Source of the DNA: Candidatus Omnitrophota bacterium
GTDB taxonomy: Bacteria > Omnitrophota > Gorgyraeia > Duberdicusellales > 4484-171
Direction of reading: 5' to 3'
Length of the DNA stretch: 64,000 nt
Assembly (NCBI GenBank): GCA_028713415.1
Contig: JAQTOI010000001.1
Span: 18,651-82,650, forward strand
The notes under the pieces were generated by a model, which did no database searches, was not told the origin of the DNA, and saw nothing but the letters and a program-made list of their open reading frames with translations. Below, piece by piece: positions 12,614 to 59,251 of the stretch. The position numbers and the translations under genes were made by a program. Every line of letters starts with the position of its first letter. Positions within the stretch are counted from its first letter, which is position 1.

Positions 12614-13334
12614 TGAATGGGATTCACGTTTCTTCAAAAAACGCATAGGGAAGCTTAAAGTAACGCATACGCAGAAGCATCTTGTTTCTTTTTCTGAACT
12701 TTTAGCGGTACGCGCGCGCGCAAAGCTTGAAAATATGAATTTTGTTACTGTGCGTTTTGACAAACCAGATGCCCGTCTTGAAAAAATAGCCAGGCGTGGC
12801 GGATTGCGTAAGTGCGGCGGAGGAGTAAATTTTATCTATAAAATTCCGGTAAATTTTAAAAATGCACCCAGTGTTGACTTTAAAATAAAAGAGTGCACCA
12901 GCCAACAGATTTCTTCCGCGTGCCTGCTCGCAAAAGACGCTTTTCGGTTAAGTTTCCTTTACTCTTGCGGTTTTGCTCCTCAGAATGTCATCGATAGGTA
13001 TCACCAAGTATGGGTTCGTAACTTGTACGCTAACAAAAACAGTTGCCTATTAGTTGCCAGCCGCCAGGGTAATGTTTTAGGTTTTCTCGTCTCATCTGCC
13101 GACATTCAGGGCCACCGCGGCAAAATGATGCTTATGGCGGTTAATAAACGATATCGAGGCATGGGCATTGGGAAAAGGCTAGTGGAGGGATTTATTGCTT
13201 GGGCAGCTGCGCATAAAATATCACGCATTGCGGTACGCACACAGGAAGATAATTACGCCGCGATTGCGGTGTATAATAAATTGAAATTTCGTTTACTCTA
13301 TAGCGACAGCGATTACTATATGAGATTGAAGTGA
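12579..13334 (+). CDS. GNAT family N-acetyltransferase
   Basis: ORF track starts at a TTG (12561). ATG at 12579 preceded by AAGGAG (12566-12571) is the more likely start. C-terminal GNAT core RYRGMGIGKRLVEGFIAWA...IAVRTQEDNYAAIAVYNKLKF. Overlaps the upstream GT2 by about 35 bp. Confidence 0.6.
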   Translation: MERKLSKLLVLDEWDSRFFKKRIGKLKVTHTQKHLVSFSELLAVRARAKLENMNFVTVRFDKPDARLEKIARRGGLRKCGGGVNFIYKIPVNFKNAPSVDFKIKECTSQQISSACLLAKDAFRLSFLYSCGFAPQNVIDRYHQVWVRNLYANKNSCLLVASRQGNVLGFLVSSADIQGHRGKMMLMAVNKRYRGMGIGKRLVEGFIAWAAAHKISRIAVRTQEDNYAAIAVYNKLKFRLLYSDSDYYMRLK

Positions 13335-15004
13335 AAAAAAATTTACCAGTAGTTTTTTTGCTGGCTACTTTTGTTATTATTGTTTTTACCTCCGTTAACA
13401 CAAAATCTCCGATTTGTGATGAAGCCGGGCACCATATCGCTGCCGGATATTCTTTTTTAAAAACCGGAGATTTTCGTATGAATCCGGCCACTCCGCCTTT
13501 AACTCGGATGCTTATGGCTGCTCCGCTTCTTCCCCTGAATCTAAAGCTGCCTCTTAATCATCCTTCCTGGCAGAATATCGATAGCACTGTTTTTAACTAT
13601 CAATTTCTTTATGTGCTTAACCAAAACCCGCAGCGTATTATTTTTTTAAGCAGGCTCCCAATGATAGCGCTTTCTGCACTCCTGGGCATTCTGATATTTA
13701 TTTGGGCACAAAAGATATATGGTTACAAGGCAGGTTTGTTTGCCCTGTTTCTATATGTATTTTCACCTACTGTATTGGCAAATGCCGGCTTAGGAATGGC
13801 AGATATGGGTTCTGCTTTCTTCATGTCTCTTGCAATATATCAATATTGGAAATTTAATTCTGCCACACGCAGAAGGACCATGTATCTGTTATTGACGGGG
13901 ATATGCTCTGGATTAGCTTTTTCTGCTAAAATAAATGCTTTTTTGCTGCTGCCGTTGTTTTTTATATGGGCGCTATACCGAGTTTTTCTTGCGCAAAACC
14001 GAAAACAAGAACTTCACCGTCAAACCATTTTATTGCTGATTATCTTTGCTATAAGTTTTATAACGCTTTGGGCTACCTATGGTTTTGAATTCAAACCCTT
14101 GCTGAAAAATGCGCCGGATATTCCTGAAAAAATAGCGTATATCAATAAGCTCTCAAAAATGCTTCCGTTTGTTAATCAGGAAGAAACTGCGCACCGGCTT
14201 GTTGATTTCGCTCAAAATACCCCCATACCTCTAAGCGCTTATATTATTTCTTGTCTCGGTATCATTAATCAAGTAGTTAGAGGGGAGCAGGCAGTTTTCT
14301 TTTTTGGCAACAGTTATCTGCAGGGCTCTAAAATATACTACTTTATCGTATTTCTCATCAAAACTCCGTTGCCTTTTCTGGTGCTGATAGCAATTTCTCT
14401 GCTTTTGCTGATTTTAAAAAAACGCACGCCAGTCGATAAACTAACAAATTCGTTTATTAGCCTCCCTATTATTTTTTTCTTTTTAAGCGCTTCGTTTTCT
14501 AAACTGCAGGGCGGACTGCGTTATCTTTTGCCGATGTATCCGTTCCTATTGATTTGGCTTTCGGATATCGTAAATGTCCGGTTAAAAAATAAAAAAATCT
14601 ATGCGCCTGCCTTTTTTACGGCTATTTCTATATGGTATGCGGCTTGTGCATTTCTTACCTACCCAAACTATTTAGCCTACTTTAATGAACTCGTCGGCGG
14701 GATGAACGGCTTTGGCTATAAAATTACCCACGATCTCGATTGGGGCCAAGATCTTCCCGCTTTATCCGAATATCTGCGCAAGGAAAAAATTGAAACCGTA
14801 AGGCTTCTATACTTTGGTACTGCAGAACCGGCAGCCTACGGCATAACGTACACTGCGTTAAGTTCTCAGGATTACCTTATGCCAGGCAAAAATGTTTACG
14901 CAATTAGTGCCCGCTATTTGCGTGTTCTGCCATGGACCGCTAACGCCACGCCAACTGCTAAGCCGGGATATTCAATATTTGTCTACGATTTTCGCAATAG
15001 CTAG
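13331..15004 (+). CDS. GT-C membrane glycosyltransferase, ArnT/PMT (GT39/GT83)-like (second copy)
   Basis: 557 aa, multi-TM. DE motif in the first loop (SPICDEAGHHIAAGYSFLKTGDF). GTG start overlapping the upstream stop (GTGA). Confidence 0.65.
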   Translation: MKKNLPVVFLLATFVIIVFTSVNTKSPICDEAGHHIAAGYSFLKTGDFRMNPATPPLTRMLMAAPLLPLNLKLPLNHPSWQNIDSTVFNYQFLYVLNQNPQRIIFLSRLPMIALSALLGILIFIWAQKIYGYKAGLFALFLYVFSPTVLANAGLGMADMGSAFFMSLAIYQYWKFNSATRRRTMYLLLTGICSGLAFSAKINAFLLLPLFFIWALYRVFLAQNRKQELHRQTILLLIIFAISFITLWATYGFEFKPLLKNAPDIPEKIAYINKLSKMLPFVNQEETAHRLVDFAQNTPIPLSAYIISCLGIINQVVRGEQAVFFFGNSYLQGSKIYYFIVFLIKTPLPFLVLIAISLLLLILKKRTPVDKLTNSFISLPIIFFFLSASFSKLQGGLRYLLPMYPFLLIWLSDIVNVRLKNKKIYAPAFFTAISIWYAACAFLTYPNYLAYFNELVGGMNGFGYKITHDLDWGQDLPALSEYLRKEKIETVRLLYFGTAEPAAYGITYTALSSQDYLMPGKNVYAISARYLRVLPWTANATPTAKPGYSIFVYDFRNS

Positions 15005-15053
15005 CCATCGCTCTTGACTACCAATGACTATTATTGACTAATTAAGATAATTG

Positions 15054-15081
15054 TTGACAAGCGTATGCCCGCCGCTATAAT
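15054..15081 (+). promoter_or_regulatory. Sigma70-type promoter for the small HTH gene. -35 TTGACA (15054-15059), 16-bp spacer, -10 TATAAT (15076-15081). Followed by RBS GAGGAG (15092-15097) and ATG at 15101.
   Basis: Read directly. The -10 box lies inside the ORF-track start (15065). This argues that the real start is the downstream ATG at 15101, which has a strong SD. Confidence 0.5.
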
Positions 15082-15100
15082 AAGCAAAAAAGAGGAGATA

Positions 15101-15340
15101 ATGGAAATTAAGCCAAACGAAGTCTATACTACCGAAGAAACCCAAGCATTACTTAAGATAAGCCCTTCTACGACCATGCGCCTTATTAAAAAAGGTGTTA
15201 TTCGTACCGCCAAAGTAGGAAAACAATATCGTATATTGGGAAAAGAGTTGCTTCGTCTTCTTTCGCCGACTCTGGAAGATAAGGTAGGGAAAGTCTACAA
15301 TAAAGGTAGGCATTGGTTACACAAAGATGTAGATGGATGA
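15101..15340 (+). CDS. Small helix-turn-helix DNA-binding protein, excisionase/MerR-like (HTH_17) family
   Basis: 80 aa from 15101 (the ORF track gives 15065, 91 aa). ...VYTTEETQALLKISPSTTMRLIKKGVIRTAKVGKQYRI... matches the excisionase-family DNA-binding domain pattern (T.EEAA.LLGVS..T.YRLI..G.LPA.KVGR.WRI). Confidence 0.55.
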   Translation: MEIKPNEVYTTEETQALLKISPSTTMRLIKKGVIRTAKVGKQYRILGKELLRLLSPTLEDKVGKVYNKGRHWLHKDVDG

Positions 15341-15364: not shown

Positions 15365-16351
15365 ATGCACATGAAGGATATATTTAAAAACAAGGTGGTG
15401 CTCATTACAGGCGGGACAGGATCCTTTGGCCAGAAATTTACCGAGATAGTTATAAAAAACTACAAACCCAGAAAACTTATTATTTTCAGCCGTGACGAGA
15501 TGAAACAGTATGAGATGCAAAAACGGTTTAATCAGGAAAACCTGCGTTATTTTGTGGGCGATGTGCGCGATCCCGATCGATTACATAGAGCTTTTGAGGG
15601 CGTGGATATTGTCGTGCATGCCGCCGCGTTAAAAATAGTCCCAACCGCAGAATATAATCCTTTTGAAGCCATTAGGACAAATATCCTTGGAGGAGAAAAC
15701 ATAATCAATGCCGCGATAGACCATAATGTCGCAAAAGTGCTGGCGATAAGCTCAGATAAGGCTGTCAATCCGGTCAACCTTTATGGCGCTACAAAAATGT
15801 GCATGGAAAAATTATTCGTTGCTGCCAATGCCTATGCCGGCAAGCACGTAACGAGAATGGCATGCGCCCGATACGGAAATGTGGTAGGTTCGCGGGGCAG
15901 CATAGTGCCATTGTTCAAAAAGCAGGCGAAAGCTGGGACAATAACCATAACTGATGAACGGATGACCAGGTTCTGGATCACGCTTGAGCAGGGAGTGAAA
16001 TTTGTCATTTCATGCATCGAAAACATGTATGGAGGCGAAATATTTGTACCGAAGATTCCAACCATGAAGATAATCGATCTTGCAAAAGCAGTCGCGCCCA
16101 AATGCAAAATAAAGAAGATAGGCATTCGCCCGGGAGAAAAGATCCATGAATGCATGTTGACCGAGGATGAGACGCGCCATGCCATGGAGTTTAAGGATTT
16201 CTTTGTGATAGAGCCCGAACATTACTGGTGGAAAAAGCAAGGGCATCTTAAGAACGGCAAAAGAATGCCGGAGGGATTTCGCTATTCGAGCGATACCAAT
16301 GAACAGTGGCTTACGAGCAAAGACATCCTTACGATGATCGGCGAGGATTAA
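15365..16351 (+). CDS. pseB: UDP-N-acetylglucosamine 4,6-dehydratase (inverting), PseB/FlaA1
   Basis: 328 aa. KVVLITGGTGSFGQKF...IFSRDEMKQYEMQ..F..GDVRD and the YGATK catalytic block match the PseB/CapD short-chain family. Confidence 0.85.
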   Translation: MHMKDIFKNKVVLITGGTGSFGQKFTEIVIKNYKPRKLIIFSRDEMKQYEMQKRFNQENLRYFVGDVRDPDRLHRAFEGVDIVVHAAALKIVPTAEYNPFEAIRTNILGGENIINAAIDHNVAKVLAISSDKAVNPVNLYGATKMCMEKLFVAANAYAGKHVTRMACARYGNVVGSRGSIVPLFKKQAKAGTITITDERMTRFWITLEQGVKFVISCIENMYGGEIFVPKIPTMKIIDLAKAVAPKCKIKKIGIRPGEKIHECMLTEDETRHAMEFKDFFVIEPEHYWWKKQGHLKNGKRMPEGFRYSSDTNEQWLTSKDILTMIGED

Positions 16352-17502
16352 TGATGAAAATCATTCCATACGGTCATCAATCCATTGACAGGCACGACAT
16401 AAAGCAGGTAATTGCCGTTTTAAAATCTGATTGGATTACCCAGGGACCGAAAATAAAAGAATTTGAAGATGATCTTTGCAGATATACCGGCGCACGTTTT
16501 TGCTTGGCGGTTTCAAGCGGGACAGCTGCGTTGCATGTCGCGTGCCTGGCAGCGGGAGTGCAAAGAGGAGATGAGGTCATCACAACACCTATTACTTTTG
16601 CTGCCTCAGCGAATTGCGCTTTGTATTGTGGAGGCAAGCCGGTTTTTGCCGATGTACAAAAAGATACCATAAACATCGATCCTTTTGCGATATCGAAAAA
16701 AATAAACACAAAAACAAAAGTATTGATCCCGGTCCATTTTGCAGGGTACCCCTGTGATTTAAAAGAGATCAATCGCATTGCAAAAAAAAATAATCTTATA
16801 GTTATCGAGGATGCCGCGCATGCCCTGGGTGCAACCTACCAGAATAAAAAAATCGGCTCATGTACTTACTCTGACATGACGGTCCTTAGCTTTCACCCCG
16901 TTAAAACCATCACTACCGGTGAAGGCGGTGCTGTCTTGACAAATAGTAAGAGCCTGTATGAAAAGCTTGTCATGTTCAGAAATCACGGCATAACCAAGAG
17001 TAACTTTAAGCGTGCACCCGAGGGGGAATGGTACCATGAGATGCGATGCTTAGGATATAACTACCGGATAACTGATTTTCAAGCTGCACTGGGTATCTCA
17101 CAGCTGCGGAAAGTAGATAGCTTTATAAAAGCAAGACAAAGTATAGCGGATATATACAAAAAGGCATTTAGCGGTAATCCTTATTTTGATCTTTTATCAG
17201 AACCCCGCGGTGCGCAGTCTTCGCATCATTTGTTTGCGATACTGTTAAAGGATCATTACAAAAGAGAAAGAAAACAAATATTTGCCAACCTAAGAAAGAA
17301 TGGGCTTGGCGTGCAGGTGCATTATATTCCAGTATATTTTCATCCTTATTATCAGCAGTTAGGCTTTAAGAGAGGCATTTGCCCGGTTGCAGAGGATTTC
17401 TATCAAAGAGAAATAAGCATACCTATATACCAGTCTATGAGTAAAGCAGCAATGCAAAGTGTTATTAAGAAAGTTTTAAAAGTATTTACGGGATACCGAT
17501 GA
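16351..17502 (+). CDS. pseC: UDP-4-amino-4,6-dideoxy-N-acetyl-beta-L-altrosamine transaminase, PseC (DegT family)
   Basis: ORF track begins at 16306, inside pseB. The ATG at 16351 overlaps the pseB stop (TAATG) and gives MMKIIPYGHQSIDRHDIKQVIAVLKSDWITQGPKI.EFE..L, the canonical PseC N-terminus. PLP-lysine block SFHPVKTITTGEGG. An A9 tract lies inside the gene (16782-16790). Confidence 0.8.
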   Translation: MMKIIPYGHQSIDRHDIKQVIAVLKSDWITQGPKIKEFEDDLCRYTGARFCLAVSSGTAALHVACLAAGVQRGDEVITTPITFAASANCALYCGGKPVFADVQKDTINIDPFAISKKINTKTKVLIPVHFAGYPCDLKEINRIAKKNNLIVIEDAAHALGATYQNKKIGSCTYSDMTVLSFHPVKTITTGEGGAVLTNSKSLYEKLVMFRNHGITKSNFKRAPEGEWYHEMRCLGYNYRITDFQAALGISQLRKVDSFIKARQSIADIYKKAFSGNPYFDLLSEPRGAQSSHHLFAILLKDHYKRERKQIFANLRKNGLGVQVHYIPVYFHPYYQQLGFKRGICPVAEDFYQREISIPIYQSMSKAAMQSVIKKVLKVFTGYR

Positions 17503-18362
17503 ATAAAATTGCTCTTGGATCAGCGCAGTTTGGAGCACATTACGGAATCAATAATCGCAGAGGAAAGATACCGGCAAACGAGGTCTTTGAAATCCTTGAT
17601 TTCGCTTCAGCCTCACAGATAGATTTACTCGACACTGCTTTTGAATACGGCGAGAGCGAAAACGTTATCGGCTATTACGAGAGAGCGCACGGTTGCCCTT
17701 TTAAAATAGTATCTAAGCTGCCGCAGTGTGCGGGCAGAGAAGTTAAAGACCTCTTCGATGCATCGCTTACGAGGCTACATGCAAAAAGTCTTTACGGGTA
17801 TCTCATACATAATTTTAAATATTTCAATGAGCATCCTGATATCTGGCGCATTTTGGAGATATTAAAGGCAGAGGGAAAAATTGAAAAGATAGGTTTCTCG
17901 ATATATTATCCAACGGAACTTGAGACACTTTTTAAGCGGAACATCAGATTCGATATGATACAGTTCCCTTACAGCATTTTAGACCAAAGGTTTACAGCGT
18001 ACTTTTCTGAACTTAAAAAGAGGGGAATTGAAATACACGTCCGCTCGGTCTTTCTTCAGGGATTGATATTTAAAGAAGCAGCTTTCTTAAATGAGAAGTT
18101 CTCAAAAATAAAGGATACAATAACGCAGATCAGATCTTTGGCCAAGGATAAGGGTATTTCGCTTGTTGCGCTCTGTGTCAATTTTGCCGCACTTAATGAA
18201 TTTATAGATAAGATTATAATCGGGGTAGATAGCCTTGGGAACCTAAAAGAAATAGTTTCATCGCGCAATTATACCAGTAACGTTGAAGAGGTCTTAAGCC
18301 AGCTTGCTACTTTGCGTGAGGATGACGAAACAATGATAGTGCCTGCAAAATGGAGGATTTAA
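17499..18362 (+). CDS. Aldo/keto reductase family oxidoreductase
   Basis: 287 aa. IALGSAQFG...LDTAFEYGESENVIG is the AKR signature. Confidence 0.6.
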   Translation: MNKIALGSAQFGAHYGINNRRGKIPANEVFEILDFASASQIDLLDTAFEYGESENVIGYYERAHGCPFKIVSKLPQCAGREVKDLFDASLTRLHAKSLYGYLIHNFKYFNEHPDIWRILEILKAEGKIEKIGFSIYYPTELETLFKRNIRFDMIQFPYSILDQRFTAYFSELKKRGIEIHVRSVFLQGLIFKEAAFLNEKFSKIKDTITQIRSLAKDKGISLVALCVNFAALNEFIDKIIIGVDSLGNLKEIVSSRNYTSNVEEVLSQLATLREDDETMIVPAKWRI

Positions 18363-19144
18363 AAGTGGATATAACTGCTATCATACAGGCAAGGCTTACC
18401 TCAACAAGGCTCCCGGGTAAGGTGTTGTTGCCTTTGGGTGATAAGCCGTTGATCTGGTATGTGTATAAGCGTACCTGCATGGCAGGCAAGATTAAAAAGG
18501 TCGTAGTTGCTACTTCAAGCGAAAAATCCGATGAGCCTTTGGTAAATTATTGTTTAAAGGAAAATATCCCCGTATTGAGAGGAAGTATGGACGACGTATT
18601 GGACAGATATTATCAGGTAGCTAAACAAATAAACGCACGCCACATAGCCAGGATTACGGCGGATTGCCCATTGATAGATCATACAATTTTAGATGCCATG
18701 GCTAATGAGTATAGTAGAGTTAGTAACGATATAGATTATCTTTCCAATACTCACCCTCCGACATTCCCCGATGGAATGGATTGCGAAATTTTTTCTTTTA
18801 ATACTTTAGAGAAAGCGTGGAAAAGCGCAACACTGCAATCAGAGAGAGAACACGTAACGCCCTATATGTATAATAATCCCGATAAATTCAACATACAAAA
18901 CTTTGAAAATGATGAGGATTATTCTCATATACGTTTAACCGTGGATGAAAAAGAAGATTACGAACTCGTCAAAAGAGTATACAGCCATTTTGATTACAGA
19001 TTGGATTTTGATACACACGATATAATCGCGTTCCTGTCAAAAGAAAAAGAATTTGCAAAAATAAATAATAAGTTTGCAAGGAATGAAGGGTATCTAAAAT
19101 CTGTCCGCCAGGATAAAAAACAGCAACAAAAGAAGAGAGAATAA
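18350..19144 (+). CDS. pseF: Acylneuraminate cytidylyltransferase-family protein (CMP-nonulosonate synthetase, PseF-like / SpsF-like)
   Basis: 264 aa. ITAIIQARLTSTRLPGKVLLPLGDKPLIWYV is the CTP_transf_3 N-terminal motif. Located inside the Pse cluster. Confidence 0.6.
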   Translation: MEDLKVDITAIIQARLTSTRLPGKVLLPLGDKPLIWYVYKRTCMAGKIKKVVVATSSEKSDEPLVNYCLKENIPVLRGSMDDVLDRYYQVAKQINARHIARITADCPLIDHTILDAMANEYSRVSNDIDYLSNTHPPTFPDGMDCEIFSFNTLEKAWKSATLQSEREHVTPYMYNNPDKFNIQNFENDEDYSHIRLTVDEKEDYELVKRVYSHFDYRLDFDTHDIIAFLSKEKEFAKINNKFARNEGYLKSVRQDKKQQQKKRE

Positions 19145-19153
19145 CGGTCCATC

Positions 19154-20581
19154 ATGAAGCCAAAAAAAGTGTTATTTATCTACCCGAACATTAATACGGA
19201 GCTAAGGATTCCGTTAGCGATTTCTATCCTTATAGCGTGTATCCGAAAAGCAGGGCATCAGGTTAAACTATTCGACACTACTTTTATGGTAGAAGATTTC
19301 GCGACTGATAATGAAGCAATGACGAATTTAGGCACTCATATGCCCACCAACCTGGTAGACATGGTCGGCCGCTTGCGCAAGGTTAATATAAAGGAAGAAT
19401 TCCATAAGGCCATAAAAGAATATTCGCCGGATCTGATTGCAGCCAGCCTCGTTGAAAGGAACTTTCCTACGGCAAAACAGCTTTTTTCATCGGTTAAGAA
19501 AGAGTTCCCGGACCTGCCGGTGCTTATCGGAGGTATTATGTCTACCATAGCCCCGGAACTTGTCATCAGAGAAGACTGGGTGGATATACTCTGTGTTGGC
19601 GAAGGTGAACACACTATCGTAGAACTGTTAAATAAGCTGGATGATCGAAATGCCCTGCGCAGCATAAAGAATATTTGGACTAAAGATGTCAATGGAAAAG
19701 TTTTTTCTAACCAGTTAAGAGATTTGATTGCTATGGACGATGTGCCTGATCAGGATTGGAGTGATTTTGATTTACGTCATCTTTTAAAACCCTTTATGGG
19801 TAAAGTTTACAGAGGAGGCGCATTTGAGTTTAGCAGGGGTTGCAGTAAGGTGTGTACCTTTTGCGTGGCCCCTCAGCTGAGGAATACACAAAAAGGCCTT
19901 GGAAAGTACCACCGGACAAAAACCCCGAATGTGGCGATAGGGGAAATAGAGCATAAAGTTAAGGATTATAATCTTAATATGATTTCTTTTGGAGACACTG
20001 ATTTTTTGAGCGAAGTGCCCAAGGACGTTATGAAAGAGTTTCTTTCTTTATATATCGAGCGTATTCAATTGCCTTTTACTATTCAATCCGGGATTGAGAC
20101 GCTCGCGGACGAAGAGATATTATCGCTTTTAAGGAAGGCCCGTTGCTGCGCAGTCAGCGTCGGTGTGGAGAGCGGCTCTGACACGATAAGAAAGAATATA
20201 ATCAAGAAATTCGTTTCCAAAGAATTTATTAAAAAGGCATTTGCGTTGTGCCGCGCACATGAACTAAGAATAACCGCAAATTATATGATAGGATTACCAT
20301 TCGAAACTGAAGATGATGTATTTGAAACGATAAGGTTCAACAAAGAGATCAATCCGCCCTCCATCGCCGTAACTTTTTTTACGCCCTTTGTCGGCACTGA
20401 ACTGTATGACATCAGTGTGAAAGAAGGTTTTTACAACCCTTTTAATATAGGGTCAAACAATTATAAGGGTTCTCCTCTGGAGATGCCCAATCTTTCTTCA
20501 GAGCGGATCTATGTGCTCGTGAAGGAATTCGTTAACGAATTTAAATCGTATCAGAAGGATTTTAATATAATAAATTCATGA
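19154..20581 (+). CDS. B12-binding domain-containing radical SAM protein (class B radical SAM, probable methyltransferase)
   Basis: 475 aa. N-terminal cobalamin-binding-like region (LIGGIMSTIAPELV...DILCVGEGEHTIVELL). CxxxCxxC radical SAM cluster motif in FEFSRGCSKVCTFCV. Confidence 0.75.
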   Translation: MKPKKVLFIYPNINTELRIPLAISILIACIRKAGHQVKLFDTTFMVEDFATDNEAMTNLGTHMPTNLVDMVGRLRKVNIKEEFHKAIKEYSPDLIAASLVERNFPTAKQLFSSVKKEFPDLPVLIGGIMSTIAPELVIREDWVDILCVGEGEHTIVELLNKLDDRNALRSIKNIWTKDVNGKVFSNQLRDLIAMDDVPDQDWSDFDLRHLLKPFMGKVYRGGAFEFSRGCSKVCTFCVAPQLRNTQKGLGKYHRTKTPNVAIGEIEHKVKDYNLNMISFGDTDFLSEVPKDVMKEFLSLYIERIQLPFTIQSGIETLADEEILSLLRKARCCAVSVGVESGSDTIRKNIIKKFVSKEFIKKAFALCRAHELRITANYMIGLPFETEDDVFETIRFNKEINPPSIAVTFFTPFVGTELYDISVKEGFYNPFNIGSNNYKGSPLEMPNLSSERIYVLVKEFVNEFKSYQKDFNIINS

Positions 20582-21531
20582 AGAAATCATACAGCGAATT
20601 GTTGGATAAGGAATTGTTAAGTTTCGTAGATCCGAACACCGGAATGCTTTCGGTAGCTCATTCTTCAATGATAGATTGCCCTATATGTGAAACAAGTTCC
20701 CTGCGGCAAAGAGAGTTATTTATTAAGCGGGGATACAGATTCGTTCTCTGCGCAGGGTGTGGGCTTATTTTTTCCAACCCGTCTATTCATAACGAGGCTA
20801 ACCGTGCATTGTATGACCAGGCCCCATCTATTAAATGCTGGTCAGAAATCCTGCAAACGCAAGACCAGAGGGGCAAAGATCTCTGTCTGTATAGTTCTTT
20901 AATTGCTTTAACAAGTAAGCTTGTTAAGCATAATGCGCCCAGGTGTCTTGATATATCCATGAGAGCGGGGCTTGCAGCCGGGTTATTTAAAAAGCGAGGA
21001 TGGAAGAGCGATTTTTATGATTTTTCTAAATACACAAGAGAGTTAGGAAAGCGAAAATTGCCCCGTGTTAGATTCTACGATTCTTTTGACTCTATTGTGA
21101 AAGCGAAAAATACCTATGATGTTGTCGTTAGCATGGAGGCAATGGAGCATTTTGCTAACCCAAGTTTTTTTATGGAGAATGTTTCGAAAATTCTTGCAAA
21201 GGGAGGTATTTTTTGTGGTTTTGTTTCAAACGTAGAAAGCATGCTTGTGCGTGTTATGGGTTCTGAGGCACCGCTCTTTGACGGTTTGTATCAAAAATTC
21301 TTTTTCCACACAGGATCTCTGAAGGCGTTATTTAAAGAGTTCAACTTTATTCCTAAAAATTTTAAGACGTTCATACCGGCTCTTGAAAAAACAGAGAAAT
21401 TTTTTAATCGAATGTTACCGGAAAGACTCTCGGCTTTCTCGCGCGCGGACATGGCGAAGATATTTAGAGTTATAAAAGAGAGCGATACCCTGGGATATAA
21501 ATTATTATTCGTTGCCAAAAAACTTAAGTAG
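20578..21531 (+). CDS. Putative SAM-dependent methyltransferase with N-terminal Cys4 zinc-ribbon (divergent motif I)
   Basis: 317 aa. CPICE...CAGCG zinc ribbon. Class I MTase-like core (CLDISMRAGLAAG...VVVSMEAMEHF) with a degenerate glycine-rich motif. Confidence 0.4.
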   Translation: MKKSYSELLDKELLSFVDPNTGMLSVAHSSMIDCPICETSSLRQRELFIKRGYRFVLCAGCGLIFSNPSIHNEANRALYDQAPSIKCWSEILQTQDQRGKDLCLYSSLIALTSKLVKHNAPRCLDISMRAGLAAGLFKKRGWKSDFYDFSKYTRELGKRKLPRVRFYDSFDSIVKAKNTYDVVVSMEAMEHFANPSFFMENVSKILAKGGIFCGFVSNVESMLVRVMGSEAPLFDGLYQKFFFHTGSLKALFKEFNFIPKNFKTFIPALEKTEKFFNRMLPERLSAFSRADMAKIFRVIKESDTLGYKLLFVAKKLK

Positions 21532-21558
21532 CGCGAAGTTAGAAGATAAGTAATCATT

Positions 21559-22869
21559 ATGGGTAAGTCGCAGAATTTATACAGGAAAGCTAAGAATATA
21601 ATACCGGGAGGTACCCAGCTTCTATCAAAAAGACCCGAGATGTTTTTGCCTGATTTTTGGCCGGCATATTACAAGGAAGCCAAAGGATGCTACGTTGTTG
21701 ATCTCGATGGGAAAAGTTACACAGATATGAGCTATATGGGTATCGGCTCATGCATATTGGGGTACGCTGACAGTGACGTAAATAAAGCCGTAAAAAGAGC
21801 AATTGACAGCGGTTCAATGTCTACGCTTAATGCTCCGGAGGAGTTTGAGCTAGCCAAAGTTCTTATCGCCTTACACCCCTGGGCGGATATGGTGCGCTAT
21901 GCGCGCACTGGTGGTGAAGCAATGGCTATGGCGGTAAGGATTGCGCGAGCCGCGAGCAGGAAAGATGCGGTGTTGTTTTGCGGTTACCATGGTTGGCATG
22001 ACTGGTATCTAGCGGCAAATTTAGCGAGCGATAGCGCATTAGACGGCCATCTCTTACCCGGTCTTAACCCTTTAGGTGTGCCGCGAACATTACAGGGTAC
22101 AGCATTTCCGTTTAGATACAACGATATTGAAAATTTCTTAAAACTTATAAAAATACACAAAAATAACATTGGGGTTGTGGTGATGGAATCTATCCGCGAC
22201 CAGAAGCCTATAAGGGAATTCCTCGCAACGATACGGGAAGTTACGAAAAAACTTAAAATAGTTCTCATTGTAGATGAAATTACCGCCGGTTTCCGGCTCA
22301 ATACCGGCGGAGCGCATTTATTGTTTGGACTTAAGCCCGATATGGCTGTTTTTGCCAAGGGTATGAGTAATGGATTTCCCATGGCTGCCGTAATCGGTAA
22401 AGAAGAGATTATGCAACGTGCCCAAGATACCTTTATAAGCAGTACCTACTGGACGGATAAAATTGGACCTACGGCAGCCCTGGCTACCATAAAAAAGTTT
22501 AGGACCTGCAATGTTTCGAAGCATCTTGCCTATGTTGGCAGGCTAGTTCAGGAGGGTTGGCGTACCTTGGCCGCCAAACACGCCCTTAAAACAGAAATCT
22601 CAGGGATGTTGCCGCTTGGGCATTTTTCATTCCAGTACGATAAACCCCTGGAATTAAAAACGCTGTTTACTCAATTGATGCTTGCAAAGGGATTCCTTGC
22701 TACGAATGCTTTCTATGCTTCATATGCGCATAAAGAGGAGCACGTGCAAAAATATTTAAGCGCCGTCGGTGAGGCGTTTGCTTTTATAGCAAAGGCAATA
22801 AAAAAAGGCAATCCCGCTAAATTCTTGAAAGGCCCGGTGTGCCATAGCGGATTTAAGAGATTAACGTAA
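21559..22869 (+). CDS. Class III aminotransferase (glutamate-1-semialdehyde 2,1-aminomutase-like)
   Basis: 436 aa. ...KAKNIIPGGTQLLSKRPE......GCYVVDLDGKSYTD and LIVDEITAGFRLNTGGA are hallmarks of the GSA-AT / AT-III fold. Confidence 0.75.
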   Translation: MGKSQNLYRKAKNIIPGGTQLLSKRPEMFLPDFWPAYYKEAKGCYVVDLDGKSYTDMSYMGIGSCILGYADSDVNKAVKRAIDSGSMSTLNAPEEFELAKVLIALHPWADMVRYARTGGEAMAMAVRIARAASRKDAVLFCGYHGWHDWYLAANLASDSALDGHLLPGLNPLGVPRTLQGTAFPFRYNDIENFLKLIKIHKNNIGVVVMESIRDQKPIREFLATIREVTKKLKIVLIVDEITAGFRLNTGGAHLLFGLKPDMAVFAKGMSNGFPMAAVIGKEEIMQRAQDTFISSTYWTDKIGPTAALATIKKFRTCNVSKHLAYVGRLVQEGWRTLAAKHALKTEISGMLPLGHFSFQYDKPLELKTLFTQLMLAKGFLATNAFYASYAHKEEHVQKYLSAVGEAFAFIAKAIKKGNPAKFLKGPVCHSGFKRLT

Positions 22870-22876
22870 ACTATTC

Positions 22877-23860
22877 ATGAAAGTTTTGATATTGACTGAA
22901 GGCGGCTGCGGCATCGGGTTCGGGCATATGGCACGATGCCAATCCCTCTATCAGGCTTTTAAGATACGGAAGACAACTACACAATTTATCATCAATGCAG
23001 ATACAGCAGCACGCAATTTTTTCAAAAACAAAGATGCTATTTTTCTTAATTGGATTAAAGAAAGAGCACAGCTTTTCAAATATATAGAGAAAGCCGATAT
23101 GGTAATCATCGATTCGTATCTGGCTGACCTGGCTCTCTATAAAAAAATATCCAGTAGGGTAAAAAAACTCGTTTGTATTGACGATACTGTGCGCCTGGAT
23201 TACCCTTGCAAAGTGATTGTCAACGGTGCCGTTTTCGCTCAAAATTTAAACTATCGTCAGAAAAAAGGCATTACCTTTTTGCTCGGCAGTAAATACACTC
23301 CGCTGCGAAAAGAATTCTGGAAGGTGTCGAATAAAAAAATCCGTGCGAGAATAAAGAATATTTTAATAATGCTCGGCGGTACTGACATAGCGAATTTACT
23401 CAAAGGTGCTATGGGGATGTTGAATAAAAAGTATCCTTTGTATCAGAAAAAGATTATCGTCGGGTGCGGATTTAAAAATACCAGATTTCTTGATCAACTA
23501 TCCGATATGCATTGCAGGGTTATTTACAACCCCGATGCAAAAGCAATAAAAAGAGAAATGCTTGCCTCTGATGTGGCTATTTCTGCAGGCGGACAGACGC
23601 TCTATGAGCTTGCCAGAGTCGGCGTACCCACGGTAGCAATCCGTGTTGCCGCAAATCAATCGAATAATTTAAAAGGCTTACGCAAAGCAGGATTTATCGA
23701 ATATGCCGCAAGCGCTACGAACAGCAAACTTTTCAATACCATAGGGAAATGTCTCGATACGATAAAGGACCAGCGCATCAGGGAAACCATGTCACGTAAG
23801 GGTAGAGCCCTTGTGGATGGTGCCGGCGCACTACGGATTGTCGATTATTTACTAAACTGA
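22877..23860 (+). CDS. pseG: UDP-2,4-diacetamido-2,4,6-trideoxy-beta-L-altropyranose hydrolase, PseG (GT28-like)
   Basis: 327 aa. MKVLILTEGGCGIGFGHMARCQSL matches the PseG N-terminal G.GH..R motif. Similar size and MurG-like C-terminal half. Confidence 0.7.
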   Translation: MKVLILTEGGCGIGFGHMARCQSLYQAFKIRKTTTQFIINADTAARNFFKNKDAIFLNWIKERAQLFKYIEKADMVIIDSYLADLALYKKISSRVKKLVCIDDTVRLDYPCKVIVNGAVFAQNLNYRQKKGITFLLGSKYTPLRKEFWKVSNKKIRARIKNILIMLGGTDIANLLKGAMGMLNKKYPLYQKKIIVGCGFKNTRFLDQLSDMHCRVIYNPDAKAIKREMLASDVAISAGGQTLYELARVGVPTVAIRVAANQSNNLKGLRKAGFIEYAASATNSKLFNTIGKCLDTIKDQRIRETMSRKGRALVDGAGALRIVDYLLN

Positions 23861-23862
23861 TT

Positions 23863-24570
23863 ATGAAGAAGAAAAAAAAGATAATCATAGCAACCATCAA
23901 ACCCTGGAACATCGCAATAGCAAAAAAATTCCACGACACATTTAGAGGTAAATATCAGGTCATTATCATCAGTTCAAAGAGTAATTTCACCTATCAGCGC
24001 ATTCGTACTATCAACCCTGAATACATATTTTTTCCGCATTGGTCCTGGAAAATTGCTGCGGAAATCTATGAAAATTTTAATTGTGTCGTGTTCCATATGA
24101 CCGATTTACCTTTTGGCAGGGGAGGCAGCCCTTTGCAGAATCTTATAGTGAGGGGAAAAACCAAAACGAAAATATCAGCCATCAAAGTAGTAAAAGATAT
24201 TGATGCGGGATCCATCTATTTAAAGAAAGATTTATCCCTTAAGGGCCCTGCCCAGAGCATATATGAAAAAGCTTCAAAGATAATTTTTAATGAGATGATT
24301 CCCCGTATCGTTGGCAACCGGCATCTTCCTAAGCCTCAGCGCGGCAGAGTTGTCTTTTTTAAGAGAAGAGAACCTAGGGAAAGCCGGATACCTGCTGGTT
24401 CCAGCATTAAGGGCATCTATGATCATATCCGTATGCTCGACGCTTACGATTATCCTCATGCATTCATCGAAACAAAAGATTTTCGTATCGAATTCACTAA
24501 AGCATATAAAGATGGTAACAGTGTTGTGGCGCAAGCGCGTATTAAAAAAAGGAGCGACGATGAAGCGTAA
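23863..24570 (+). CDS. Formyltransferase-family protein (Fmt/ArnA N-domain-like)
   Basis: 235 aa. NCVVFHMTDLPFGRGGSPLQ contains the conserved Asn, catalytic His and the LP..RG..P folate-binding signature. Confidence 0.7.
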   Translation: MKKKKKIIIATIKPWNIAIAKKFHDTFRGKYQVIIISSKSNFTYQRIRTINPEYIFFPHWSWKIAAEIYENFNCVVFHMTDLPFGRGGSPLQNLIVRGKTKTKISAIKVVKDIDAGSIYLKKDLSLKGPAQSIYEKASKIIFNEMIPRIVGNRHLPKPQRGRVVFFKRREPRESRIPAGSSIKGIYDHIRMLDAYDYPHAFIETKDFRIEFTKAYKDGNSVVAQARIKKRSDDEA

Positions 24571-32570: not shown

Positions 32571-32651
32571 GGGATAATGACAATTGTAGACCATTTGGCA
32601 TAGATTATAACGAGCAATATTTTTTAAGATGGACTAACCACGGGTTATTTT

Positions 32652-58304: not shown

Positions 58305-58831
58305 TCCCTCCTCACCAGGCGGCCGCATAATTTTGCCCTCTTCTGAAACCGTTTACAAAAAACGCAAATTTACTCTTAAAACCGCTGGCTCCCCTCTACC
58401 TATATATGTTATATTGAATTGTTTACTAATTGTATGGCTAATTGTTGGCCTAATAAGGGCTGCCGGAGGGGACGGCACTTAAACCCGTGCGTTCCTCCTA
58501 AGGGAACAATAGAACAATTGAGCATTAGACCGCAATTGAGCCTTCATTCTTTCTATTGTTCTATTATCTATTGCTCAATTGCTCTGTCTGATTTTGCCAA
58601 GGGCAAAATAAGACTGCCGGGGGTAACGCGGTCGATGAAAACCCATCATCCACCTCCTAAAAAGGCAATATCCCCGGCGGTTTTTATTAAACCACCACAA
58701 TTTAGCGCTTAAGGAATAAACCTCGTTAATCCTATGCTATTTATACCTTTTAGGTTTACCGGAGGAGAAAATCCGCATATTGCTAATAGCAGCTTGCGTT
58801 TTTCCGGTGTAATAAAAAATTAAATTCATAC

Positions 58832-58859
58832 TTTACAAAATAAAAAAAGAGCATATAAT
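58832..58859 (+). promoter_or_regulatory. Candidate sigma70 promoter for rpsO-pnp. -35 TTTACA (58832-58837), 16-bp spacer, -10 TATAAT (58854-58859). About 120-nt leader containing a CTTCGAA/TTCGAA hairpin.
   Basis: Read directly. S15 is known to autoregulate via structures in its own leader in diverse bacteria. Confidence 0.4.
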
Positions 58860-58987
58860 AGCATCTGTTCTTCGATAAGTGTAGTTTTTCGCCTTCAAAA
58901 CTAAGCCCCCAGGGAGCTTCGAAGTTGTTCGAAAGGCCCTTTGAATCAATATTGACAGGCTAAATGAAAGGAGTATGATAGGATATT

Positions 58988-59251
58988 ATGCTTACTAAAG
59001 GACGAAAGAAAAATTTAATCGATAAGTTCAAAGAACACCAACAAGATACAGGCTCGGCTTCTGTGCAGGTAGCGCTGCTTACTGAACGGATTAATTACCT
59101 TACAGATCACCTCAAGAAACATAAGAAGGATTTTCATTCCCGCCGCGGCCTCTTAATGCTCGTAGGAAGGCGCCGCCGTCTGCTAACCTATCTTAAGAGA
59201 AAAGATCCTCCGGGCTACGGAGAGGTGGCAAAGGAATTGGACCTTAAATAA
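58988..59251 (+). CDS. rpsO: 30S ribosomal protein S15
   Basis: 87 aa. ...DTGSASVQVALLTERINYLTDHLKKHKKDFHSRRGLLMLVGRRRRLLTYLKRKD is near-universal S15 sequence. Confidence 0.9.
   Translation: MLTKGRKKNLIDKFKEHQQDTGSASVQVALLTERINYLTDHLKKHKKDFHSRRGLLMLVGRRRRLLTYLKRKDPPGYGEVAKELDLK

Follow-up and report, generated by a model that had tools for sequence, protein, structure and literature searches.

What does a gene with an excisionase-family domain do at the head of a pseudaminic-acid-type operon, immediately downstream of direct repeats that end in the gene's own promoter? The question is raised by a 64-kb window (the whole stretch of DNA analyzed here, whose numbering is used for all window positions) from a metagenome-assembled genome of a Candidatus Omnitrophota bacterium (GCA_028713415.1, contig JAQTOI010000001.1), in which a small helix-turn-helix (HTH) protein is encoded between a glycosyltransferase gene and pseB. 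An earlier sequence-only reading of this DNA had offered two answers: an autoregulated regulator inserted in a glycan island, or an Xis-like protein left behind by an integrative element with which the downstream Pse genes arrived. We find that the gene, a repeat array of 10-bp period and a promoter exist and are conserved together in Omnitrophota, Auribacterota-like and Patescibacteria genomes, and we propose, with moderate confidence, that the protein is a BldC-like single-domain winged-HTH regulator, encoded by the first gene of the operon, that would polymerize on its phased operator and autoregulate, probably repress, the pse promoter.

The array and promoter in the window and in related loci

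The repeats and promoter elements are listed in Table 1, and comparison with the sequence-only reading is straightforward. The motifs that it picked out (TTGACTA, ATGACTA, TTGACTA and TTGACAA, followed by a TTGACA-16-TATAAT promoter, GAGGAG and an ATG) are present at the positions that it gave, including the start positions that define its 10-, 10- and 20-bp steps. The 20-bp step itself is not a true gap, as it holds a degenerate in-phase unit at 15044; the array thus has five units, the −35 being the last. Two of its measurements also need correction, with the intergenic distance from the glycosyltransferase stop codon to the HTH start codon being 96 bp (15005–15100) rather than 60 bp, and the protein being 79 rather than 80 residues long.

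The array stands out from the rest of the window in several respects. The array accounts for both occurrences of TTGACTA in the 64 kb; a three-unit pattern with up to three mismatches is found in the window at the array only, with 0.02 expected per shuffle; and with a three-unit position weight matrix built from related loci the array scores 28.9, compared to a mean shuffle maximum of 11.9. Tandem Repeats Finder reports a 10-bp period at 15014–15040. The matrix scan revealed no second significant array in the window, and the best other two-unit match, an intergenic site at 32576, scores 12.6, which is below the mean shuffle maximum of 13.9. The promoter is the sole 12/12 sigma-70 match in the window (0.07 expected), and the transcription start site (TSS) is predicted to be near 15088.

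A scan of species-representative genomes identified the HTH gene in 56, belonging to Omnitrophota (some mislabeled Planctomycetia), Auribacterota and several lineages of the candidate phyla radiation (CPR). Direct repeats of 10-bp period are present in the 130 nt upstream of the homologues at nearly every locus. A strict rule applied to the loci, at least three TGA[CT] motifs at exact 10-bp steps, is satisfied in 36 of the 56, directly upstream of the gene in 33 and farther upstream within the cluster in three. All strict matches at these loci are on the strand of the HTH gene, and only one other strict match (L053:1597) is present in about 0.4 Mb searched on both strands. When scoring is relaxed and arrays at operon heads are included, the count of loci with an array rises to about 50 of the 55 that are informative. 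This tie between array, gene and promoter, which spans three phylum-level groups, points in favor of the autoregulated regulator with an operator array that had been suggested previously.

In the three loci with distal arrays (L009, L011 and L012) the array is at the operon head, with another gene or a long leader preceding the HTH gene. The leader in L009 (3760–4000), an Omnitrophota locus, is a hairpin-rich insertion of about 230 nt that separates the HTH start codon from the conserved array and promoter, and is without an Rfam match. We also note that the Patescibacteria locus L053 has two arrays, one before its HTH gene and a second, in-phase TGACACC array (1597–1620) upstream of an RfbC/FdtA-like gene of the same glycan cluster, and that the sole array found in the Patescibacteria locus L058 (2566–2589) precedes the equivalent RfbC/FdtA-like gene. 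These two loci hint at control extending beyond autoregulation.

An alignment of 13 Omnitrophota promoters (A4) reveals a common plan, with three good units, a fourth unit, a fifth that is the −35 TTGACA, a 16–17-nt spacer, TATAAT, and 17–31 nt to the start codon. TATAAT is kept in 10 of the 13 loci and TTGACA in nine, and the fourth unit is of the AAGA type in six, including the window. The position of the array relative to the promoter differs between groups; in Omnitrophota the −35 is the last unit, and in the Patescibacteria and Auribacterota-like loci it is the first, such that the array continues across spacer, −10 and leader. The groups also differ in their consensus unit, which is AWTGACTAYT in Omnitrophota, AATGATAACT in Auribacterota-like loci, and AWTGACACCT in Patescibacteria. 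The number of units per locus ranges from 2 to more than 11. For example, L025 (3900–4000) and L030 (3780–4000) have about four and at least 11 near-perfect copies of ATGATAACTA, respectively, with regulators that are about 90% identical, a copy-number gap that suggests replication slippage.

Table 1. Coordinates of the array, promoter, HTH gene and neighboring genes in the window.
Feature	Position	Strand	Description and evidence
Repeat unit 1, TTGACTACCA	15014..15023	+	TTGACTAcca; TGAC core at about −73 from the predicted TSS; aligns with unit 1 of related loci (A4)
Repeat unit 2, ATGACTATTA	15024..15033	+	ATGACTAtta; about −63; core T and G invariant in A4
Repeat unit 3, TTGACTAATT	15034..15043	+	TTGACTAatt; about −53
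Degenerate in-phase unit 4, AAGATAATTG	15044..15053	+	AAGATAAttg; AAGA form also in L004, L121, L009, L013 and L044
Unit 5, −35 hexamer TTGACA	15054..15059	+	Sequence and promoter scan
−10 hexamer TATAAT	15076..15081	+	16-nt spacer from the −35; TATAAT column conserved in A4
Shine-Dalgarno GAGGAG	15092..15097	+	Read from sequence
HTH_17 winged-helix protein, 79 residues, BldC/Xis-like	15101..15340	+	Pfam, TIGR01764, AlphaFold2 (AF2) model; C-terminal helix extension at residues 56–77
PMT/ArnT-like glycosyltransferase	13331..15004	+	Directly upstream; neighbor kept in many related loci
pseB (UDP-GlcNAc 4,6-dehydratase, inverting)	15371..16351	+	TIGR03589, 510.6 bits against a cut-off of 407.75
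pseC aminotransferase	16354..17502	+	TIGR03588, 520.3 bits against a cut-off of 423.5
Remainder of presumed operon	17499..24570	+	Aldo-keto reductase, cytidylyltransferase, B12-radical SAM, methyltransferase, class-III aminotransferase, pseG, formyltransferase

Family and fold of the protein

The longest open reading frame (ORF) covering the HTH gene opens at 15065, inside the promoter spacer; all of the homologues begin MEIK, and 15101 is therefore the true start. Pfam HTH_17 (PF12728) is matched at 48.1 bits with a cut-off of 27 (E 1.4e-12), no other Pfam domain was found in the protein, and the excisionase-family domain TIGR01764 is matched at 33.7 bits with a cut-off of 28.8. A search with the 79-residue protein recovered 1,053 relatives (E ≤ 0.001), with the best 120 listed being 79–100% identical over the full length, and a search with the Patescibacteria version added 781 further relatives; clustering at 50% reduces the whole family to 307 representatives.

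The protein resembles BldC and Xis in both fold and sequence. Searches of the PDB with the single sequence or a shallow profile returned only noise, and BldC (6ama, 6amk), its best solved relative (E 2e-5), emerged once the profile (A3) was built from more of the family; there are sub-significant matches to the Xis of mycobacteriophage Pukovnik (4j2n, E 0.003), a MerR-type cobalamin-binding protein, and RacA (E 0.08). BldC itself matches Pfam HTH_17 and also the Pfam MerR models. BldC has hydrophobic residues F21, W31 and L43 at its oligomerization interface; in an alignment of hidden Markov models the invariant L18 and L/M28 face F21 and W31, and the position of the wing residue L43 is within an indel. 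The AF2 model that we used is the second obtained, the first, from a shallow alignment, having been discarded for an implausible 33-residue helix running through invariant glycines. It has predicted local distance difference test scores of 95–97 over residues 1–50 and the canonical winged-helix topology b1-a1-a2-b2-b3-a3. Foldseek superimposes it on BldC with a root-mean-square deviation of 1.2–1.8 Å and a target-normalized template modeling (TM) score of 0.76–0.83, and the corresponding TM score on Pukovnik Xis (4j2n) is 0.82. Residues 56–77 form a conserved C-terminal helix that is of low confidence in the model and is absent from BldC.

Three members of the wider family (P0251, P0293 and P0297) are larger proteins of 216–280 residues with 4–5 tandem HTH_17 domains, and share 34–37% identity with the query. 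These fusions look like covalent head-to-tail multimers, a form that is compatible with the reading of direct repeats.

Synteny and the glycan island

The HTH gene is a syntenic core gene that nearly always heads glycan operons. Genes for a PseB-type dehydratase and a DegT/PseC-type aminotransferase lie within one or two genes downstream in the majority of the 56 loci; 21 loci have a confirmed PseB (at least 55% identity) and 26 a confirmed PseC (at least 45%). Nine other first-downstream genes were scanned, of which eight are glycan genes (NeuB, cytidylyltransferase, glycosyltransferases of the GT1 and GT2 families, Wzx-type flippases, and GDP-mannose dehydratase) and one has no family match. 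The gene thus has a settled place ahead of pseB/pseC or other glycan genes, and the earlier suggestion of an insertion in the glycan island is not supported. Median identities to the window proteins in the same genomes are 74% for the HTH protein, 59% for PseB, 49% for PseC, and 37% for the upstream glycosyltransferase; the regulator is more conserved than the adjoining enzymes, a sign of strong purifying selection.

The window contains a glycan island of about 57 kbp with co-directional genes and an even GC content of 35–45% along its length. Domain scans of the genes upstream of the HTH gene identify an initiating sugar transferase, a Wzy-like protein, GT2 enzymes, YfhO, a fused dehydratase-aminotransferase, two PMT-like glycosyltransferases, and a GNAT acetyltransferase. 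Downstream, the HTH stop codon and the start of pseB are 30 nt apart with no predicted terminator-like site in the interval, for which reasons the HTH gene and pseB likely share one transcript. The genes that follow pseC in the presumed operon (Table 1) are on the same strand and overlapping or closely packed. The downstream genes exceed the cut-offs of the PseB, PseC and PseG equivalog models, PseG marginally (155.6 bits against 153.55); neither PseH nor PseI was recognized in the genes scanned, and the operon cytidylyltransferase matches KdsB-type models only, below their cut-offs. Within the pse operon, the segment at 19154–22869 encodes a B12-binding radical SAM enzyme, an S-adenosylmethionine-dependent methyltransferase and a class-III aminotransferase, which suggests that the product is a derivative of pseudaminic acid with C-methylation or some other decoration.

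Two other parts of the window have repeats of a different kind. The segment at 120–150 (TTGACACTATTGACTTAG), upstream of the first gene of the island (a Bac_transf initiating sugar transferase at 358), has two TTGAC units, with the pair TTGACACTA/TTGACTT at about 128–143 spaced by 9 bp, not 10, and hence not scored as an array. At 58305–58990 there is a non-coding segment of about 690 bp upstream of apparent rpsO and pnp genes, which contains tandem repeats of AATTGTTGGCT (3.3 copies), GAACAATA (3.2 copies) and TCTATTGC (4.4 copies) together with two 11/12 promoter-like sites (58832 and 58952), and has no match in Rfam. No Rfam families were found in the window, in locus L009 with its long leader, or in L091 (see below).

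Mechanism, alternatives and relation to known systems

In the mechanism that we propose, monomers would bind head-to-tail on the 10-bp direct repeats (consensus A-W-TGAC-T-A-Y-T), one per helical turn. A short filament would nucleate on the three strong units at about −73, −63 and −53, and spread across the weak fourth unit to reach the fifth, the −35 of the consensus sigma-70 promoter. At high levels of the protein the filament would then compete with RNA polymerase, such that the regulator would lower its own expression together with that of the co-transcribed pse genes (negative autoregulation), and the C-terminal helix is the obvious candidate surface for any modulating signal. We infer both that the protein binds to its own array and that it acts as a repressor, which we take to be roughly twice as likely as activation. 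First, the perfect 12/12 promoter needs no activator. Secondly, the array covers the core promoter in other clades, and an operator that always overlaps the core promoter, at varying placement, fits occlusion better than activation. Thirdly, the BldC targets whiI and smeA-ssfA are both regarded as being under BldC control, and a bldC mutant transcribes whiI earlier (PMC5859096).

In the likeliest alternative the pair is the same and the protein is an activator, with the filament at −53 to −73, on one face of the helix, recruiting or stabilizing RNA polymerase, such that positive autoregulation gives a switch-like ON state for the glycans. The three best Omnitrophota units are indeed at typical class-I activator positions, the unit adjoining the −35 is degenerate in many species, and some Xis-type proteins activate transcription, Xis2d being an example that is mentioned through a citation in PMC12266134. 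We nonetheless regard activation as unlikely, because the window promoter is already perfect with its 16-nt spacer and the A4 promoters mostly keep both TATAAT and TTGACA, and because the Patescibacteria and Auribacterota-like arrays, running from the −35 over the spacer, −10 and leader, are in a repressive position.

A second alternative is that the repeats are part of the promoter architecture (phased −35-like or UP-like elements, or intrinsically bent DNA, recognized by RNA polymerase or a different factor) or a slippage-prone 10-bp tandem repeat whose copy number tunes expression, and that the HTH protein acts elsewhere. The unit core TTGAC is the −35 consensus, the unit number is highly variable with an apparent case of slippage in L025 and L030, and long arrays of a nearly identical 10-mer are present in many metagenome contigs that lack the gene. 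A metagenome scan for TGACTAYYAWTGACTAYYAWTGAC returned 80 loci (L059–L138), most of which are long intergenic (AATGACTAYC)n arrays with up to more than 30 copies, none of them within a long ORF (e.g. L070:6292–6500, L075:312–385, L084:1816–2060 and L135:676–1000; coordinates of L070, L135 and L091 are those of the reverse-complemented locus, the array strand). In 25 of the 80 loci the array is preceded by 2–7 inverted GTCATT copies about 13–14 bp apart, and the genes flanking the metagenome arrays appear to be from other phyla. The scan is so swamped by tandem arrays that a regulon is not definable from it. Promoter architecture of this kind is nevertheless a distinctly doubtful explanation of the arrays at the HTH gene, as other strong promoter-like sites in the window (4910, 56886, 58832 and 58952) carry no such array, arrays in about 0.5 Mb of related DNA are essentially restricted to the HTH gene or its operon head and accompany the gene even across phyla, and the unit varies by clade along with the protein, whereas sigma-70 recognition should not vary.

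Among the metagenome loci, L091 (820–900) has the same short array with TTGACA-N17-TATAAA before a different gene (product beginning MKVCVFVDGENF, of NYN/LabA-like look) and a leader of about 100 nt; it may be a member of the regulon in some organism, or a case of convergence.

The remaining alternative, that the protein is what is left of an excisionase (recombination directionality factor) from an integrative element that carried in the Pse module, with the repeats as former Xis sites in an att region, draws on the TIGR01764 domain, weak PHROG excisionase matches (E 5e-4 to 7e-3), the closeness of the fold to Pukovnik Xis and the binding of phased direct repeats by Xis proteins, and we reject it as very improbable, because the gene has the same syntenic position in at least 50 species across phyla and is conserved above its neighboring enzymes, its repeats end in a consensus promoter driving the gene itself, GC is even, there are no relatives among 2.9 million viral contigs and no tRNA genes in the window, and no integrase-type domain was found among the neighbors scanned (11 of 12 upstream ORFs and nine downstream genes).

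The proposal of a BldC-like autoregulator must itself be set against several observations that count against it. The relationship to BldC is distant, with an hhalign probability of 43% at 22–23% identity and a Foldseek E value of only 0.016. The TTGAC core is the −35 consensus, such that the array could instead be bound by RNA polymerase or by some other factor; and while 38 of 44 loci have their −35 in phase with the array, this result is partly built in, as the unit core and the sigma-70 −35 core are the same. Similarly, the clade differences in the unit parallel changes around the recognition helix, a covariation that is confounded by phylogeny. With unit 4 systematically degenerate, the filament might halt before the −35, an arrangement that would suit activation from −53 to −73 rather than repression, and the C-terminal helix could dimerize or bind a partner, altering the binding mode. 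Four loci (L018, L019, L027 and L042) have the gene and no detectable array; conversely, the HTH gene is downstream of the array in only two of the 80 metagenome loci, and near-identical 10-bp arrays can arise independently of the gene. Finally, the hosts are uncultured, and binding of the protein to the array, its footprint and the TSS are all predictions from sequence.

If the proposed mechanism is correct, then a BldC/Xis-type filament-forming winged helix would be tied to the control of pseudaminic-acid-type surface glycans, which are likely relevant to host or partner attachment in host-dependent nanobacteria, and the BldC mechanism, so far shown in Streptomyces, would extend to several distant phyla. 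To our knowledge transcriptional regulation in Omnitrophota and CPR bacteria, which are uncultured, is almost uncharted, and this pair has the merit that the DNA site of the regulator can be read straight from genomes. In the literature searched there is no description of this HTH family or of its link to pse loci, and no paper linking an excisionase-family HTH protein to pseudaminic acid, Omnitrophota, or Patescibacteria glycan loci. The "excisionase family" labels on more than 1,800 protein clusters, which wrongly imply mobile elements in glycan islands, would also be corrected. More tentatively, we speculate that the BldC-like protein and its phased operator are a dedicated master switch of nonulosonic-acid glycosylation in ultra-small Omnitrophota, Auribacterota and CPR/Patescibacteria, that the cassette has moved between phyla, and that gain and loss of 10-bp units (3 to more than 11) serve as a slippage tuning or phase-variation knob; the metagenome arrays might then be targets of the same class.

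The best NCBIfam model is MamR (NF040990), a small HTH_17-type protein of the magnetosome island, and some Omnitrophota are reported to be magnetotactic. Identity with MamR is rejected, as the score of 43.2 bits (E 3.6e-11) is well below the 100-bit cut-off and there is no magnetosome gene context; the score reflects the shared HTH_17 domain only, and automatic annotation could mislabel the gene. The N-terminal winged HTH is also homologous to that of classical MerR proteins, but this identity is likewise rejected. The 79-residue protein has neither the long coiled-coil dimerization helix nor an effector domain, the spacer is 16–17 nt (16 nt in the window) rather than the 19–20 nt of MerR-type distortion, and the sites are direct repeats; no palindrome overlaps the promoter, with the sole inverted pairs found lying upstream of it.

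The excisionases of phages and integrative and conjugative elements are closer. Lambda Xis, Pukovnik Xis and D29 Gp36 behave similarly to BldC on direct repeats, and D29 Gp36 is an Xis-type protein that is able to repress (PMC12266134). These proteins and L5 Xis share the winged-helix fold with the 79-residue protein, and the cooperative filaments that excisionases form on phased direct repeats are paralleled here by likeness of fold and sites. Unlike them, the protein has no recombinase partner, att site or mobile element in the surroundings scanned and no homologues in the viral contigs, and is the product of a chromosomal core gene with conserved synteny.

The closest solved match by both profile and fold is BldC of Streptomyces (6AMA, 6AMK), likewise a small MerR/Xis-type winged-HTH protein with an HTH_17 domain. 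BldC is monomeric and forms cooperative head-to-tail multimers on 9–10-bp direct repeats at promoters, with protected tracts one helical turn apart and two to four repeats per promoter, the targets described being whiI and smeA-ssfA (PMC5859096, Schumacher et al. 2018). The arrays here similarly lie at promoters and consist of a variable number of direct repeats with a spacing of about one helical turn, to which binding is predicted from the sequence. There are several differences. First, identity to BldC is about 22%, and the 79-residue protein has the extra conserved C-terminal helix. Secondly, the Omnitrophota array unit is TGAC-centered and exactly 10 bp, compared to the 9-bp AATT-N4-C of BldC. 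Thirdly, the array is on the regulator's own promoter, overlapping the −35, and the genes behind it form a nonulosonic-acid/glycan operon in Omnitrophota and Patescibacteria rather than the developmental genes of Streptomyces. In its domain, its modeled fold and its direct-repeat sites the module nevertheless agrees with both relatives, and we suggest that it works like BldC or like an Xis protein turned regulator.

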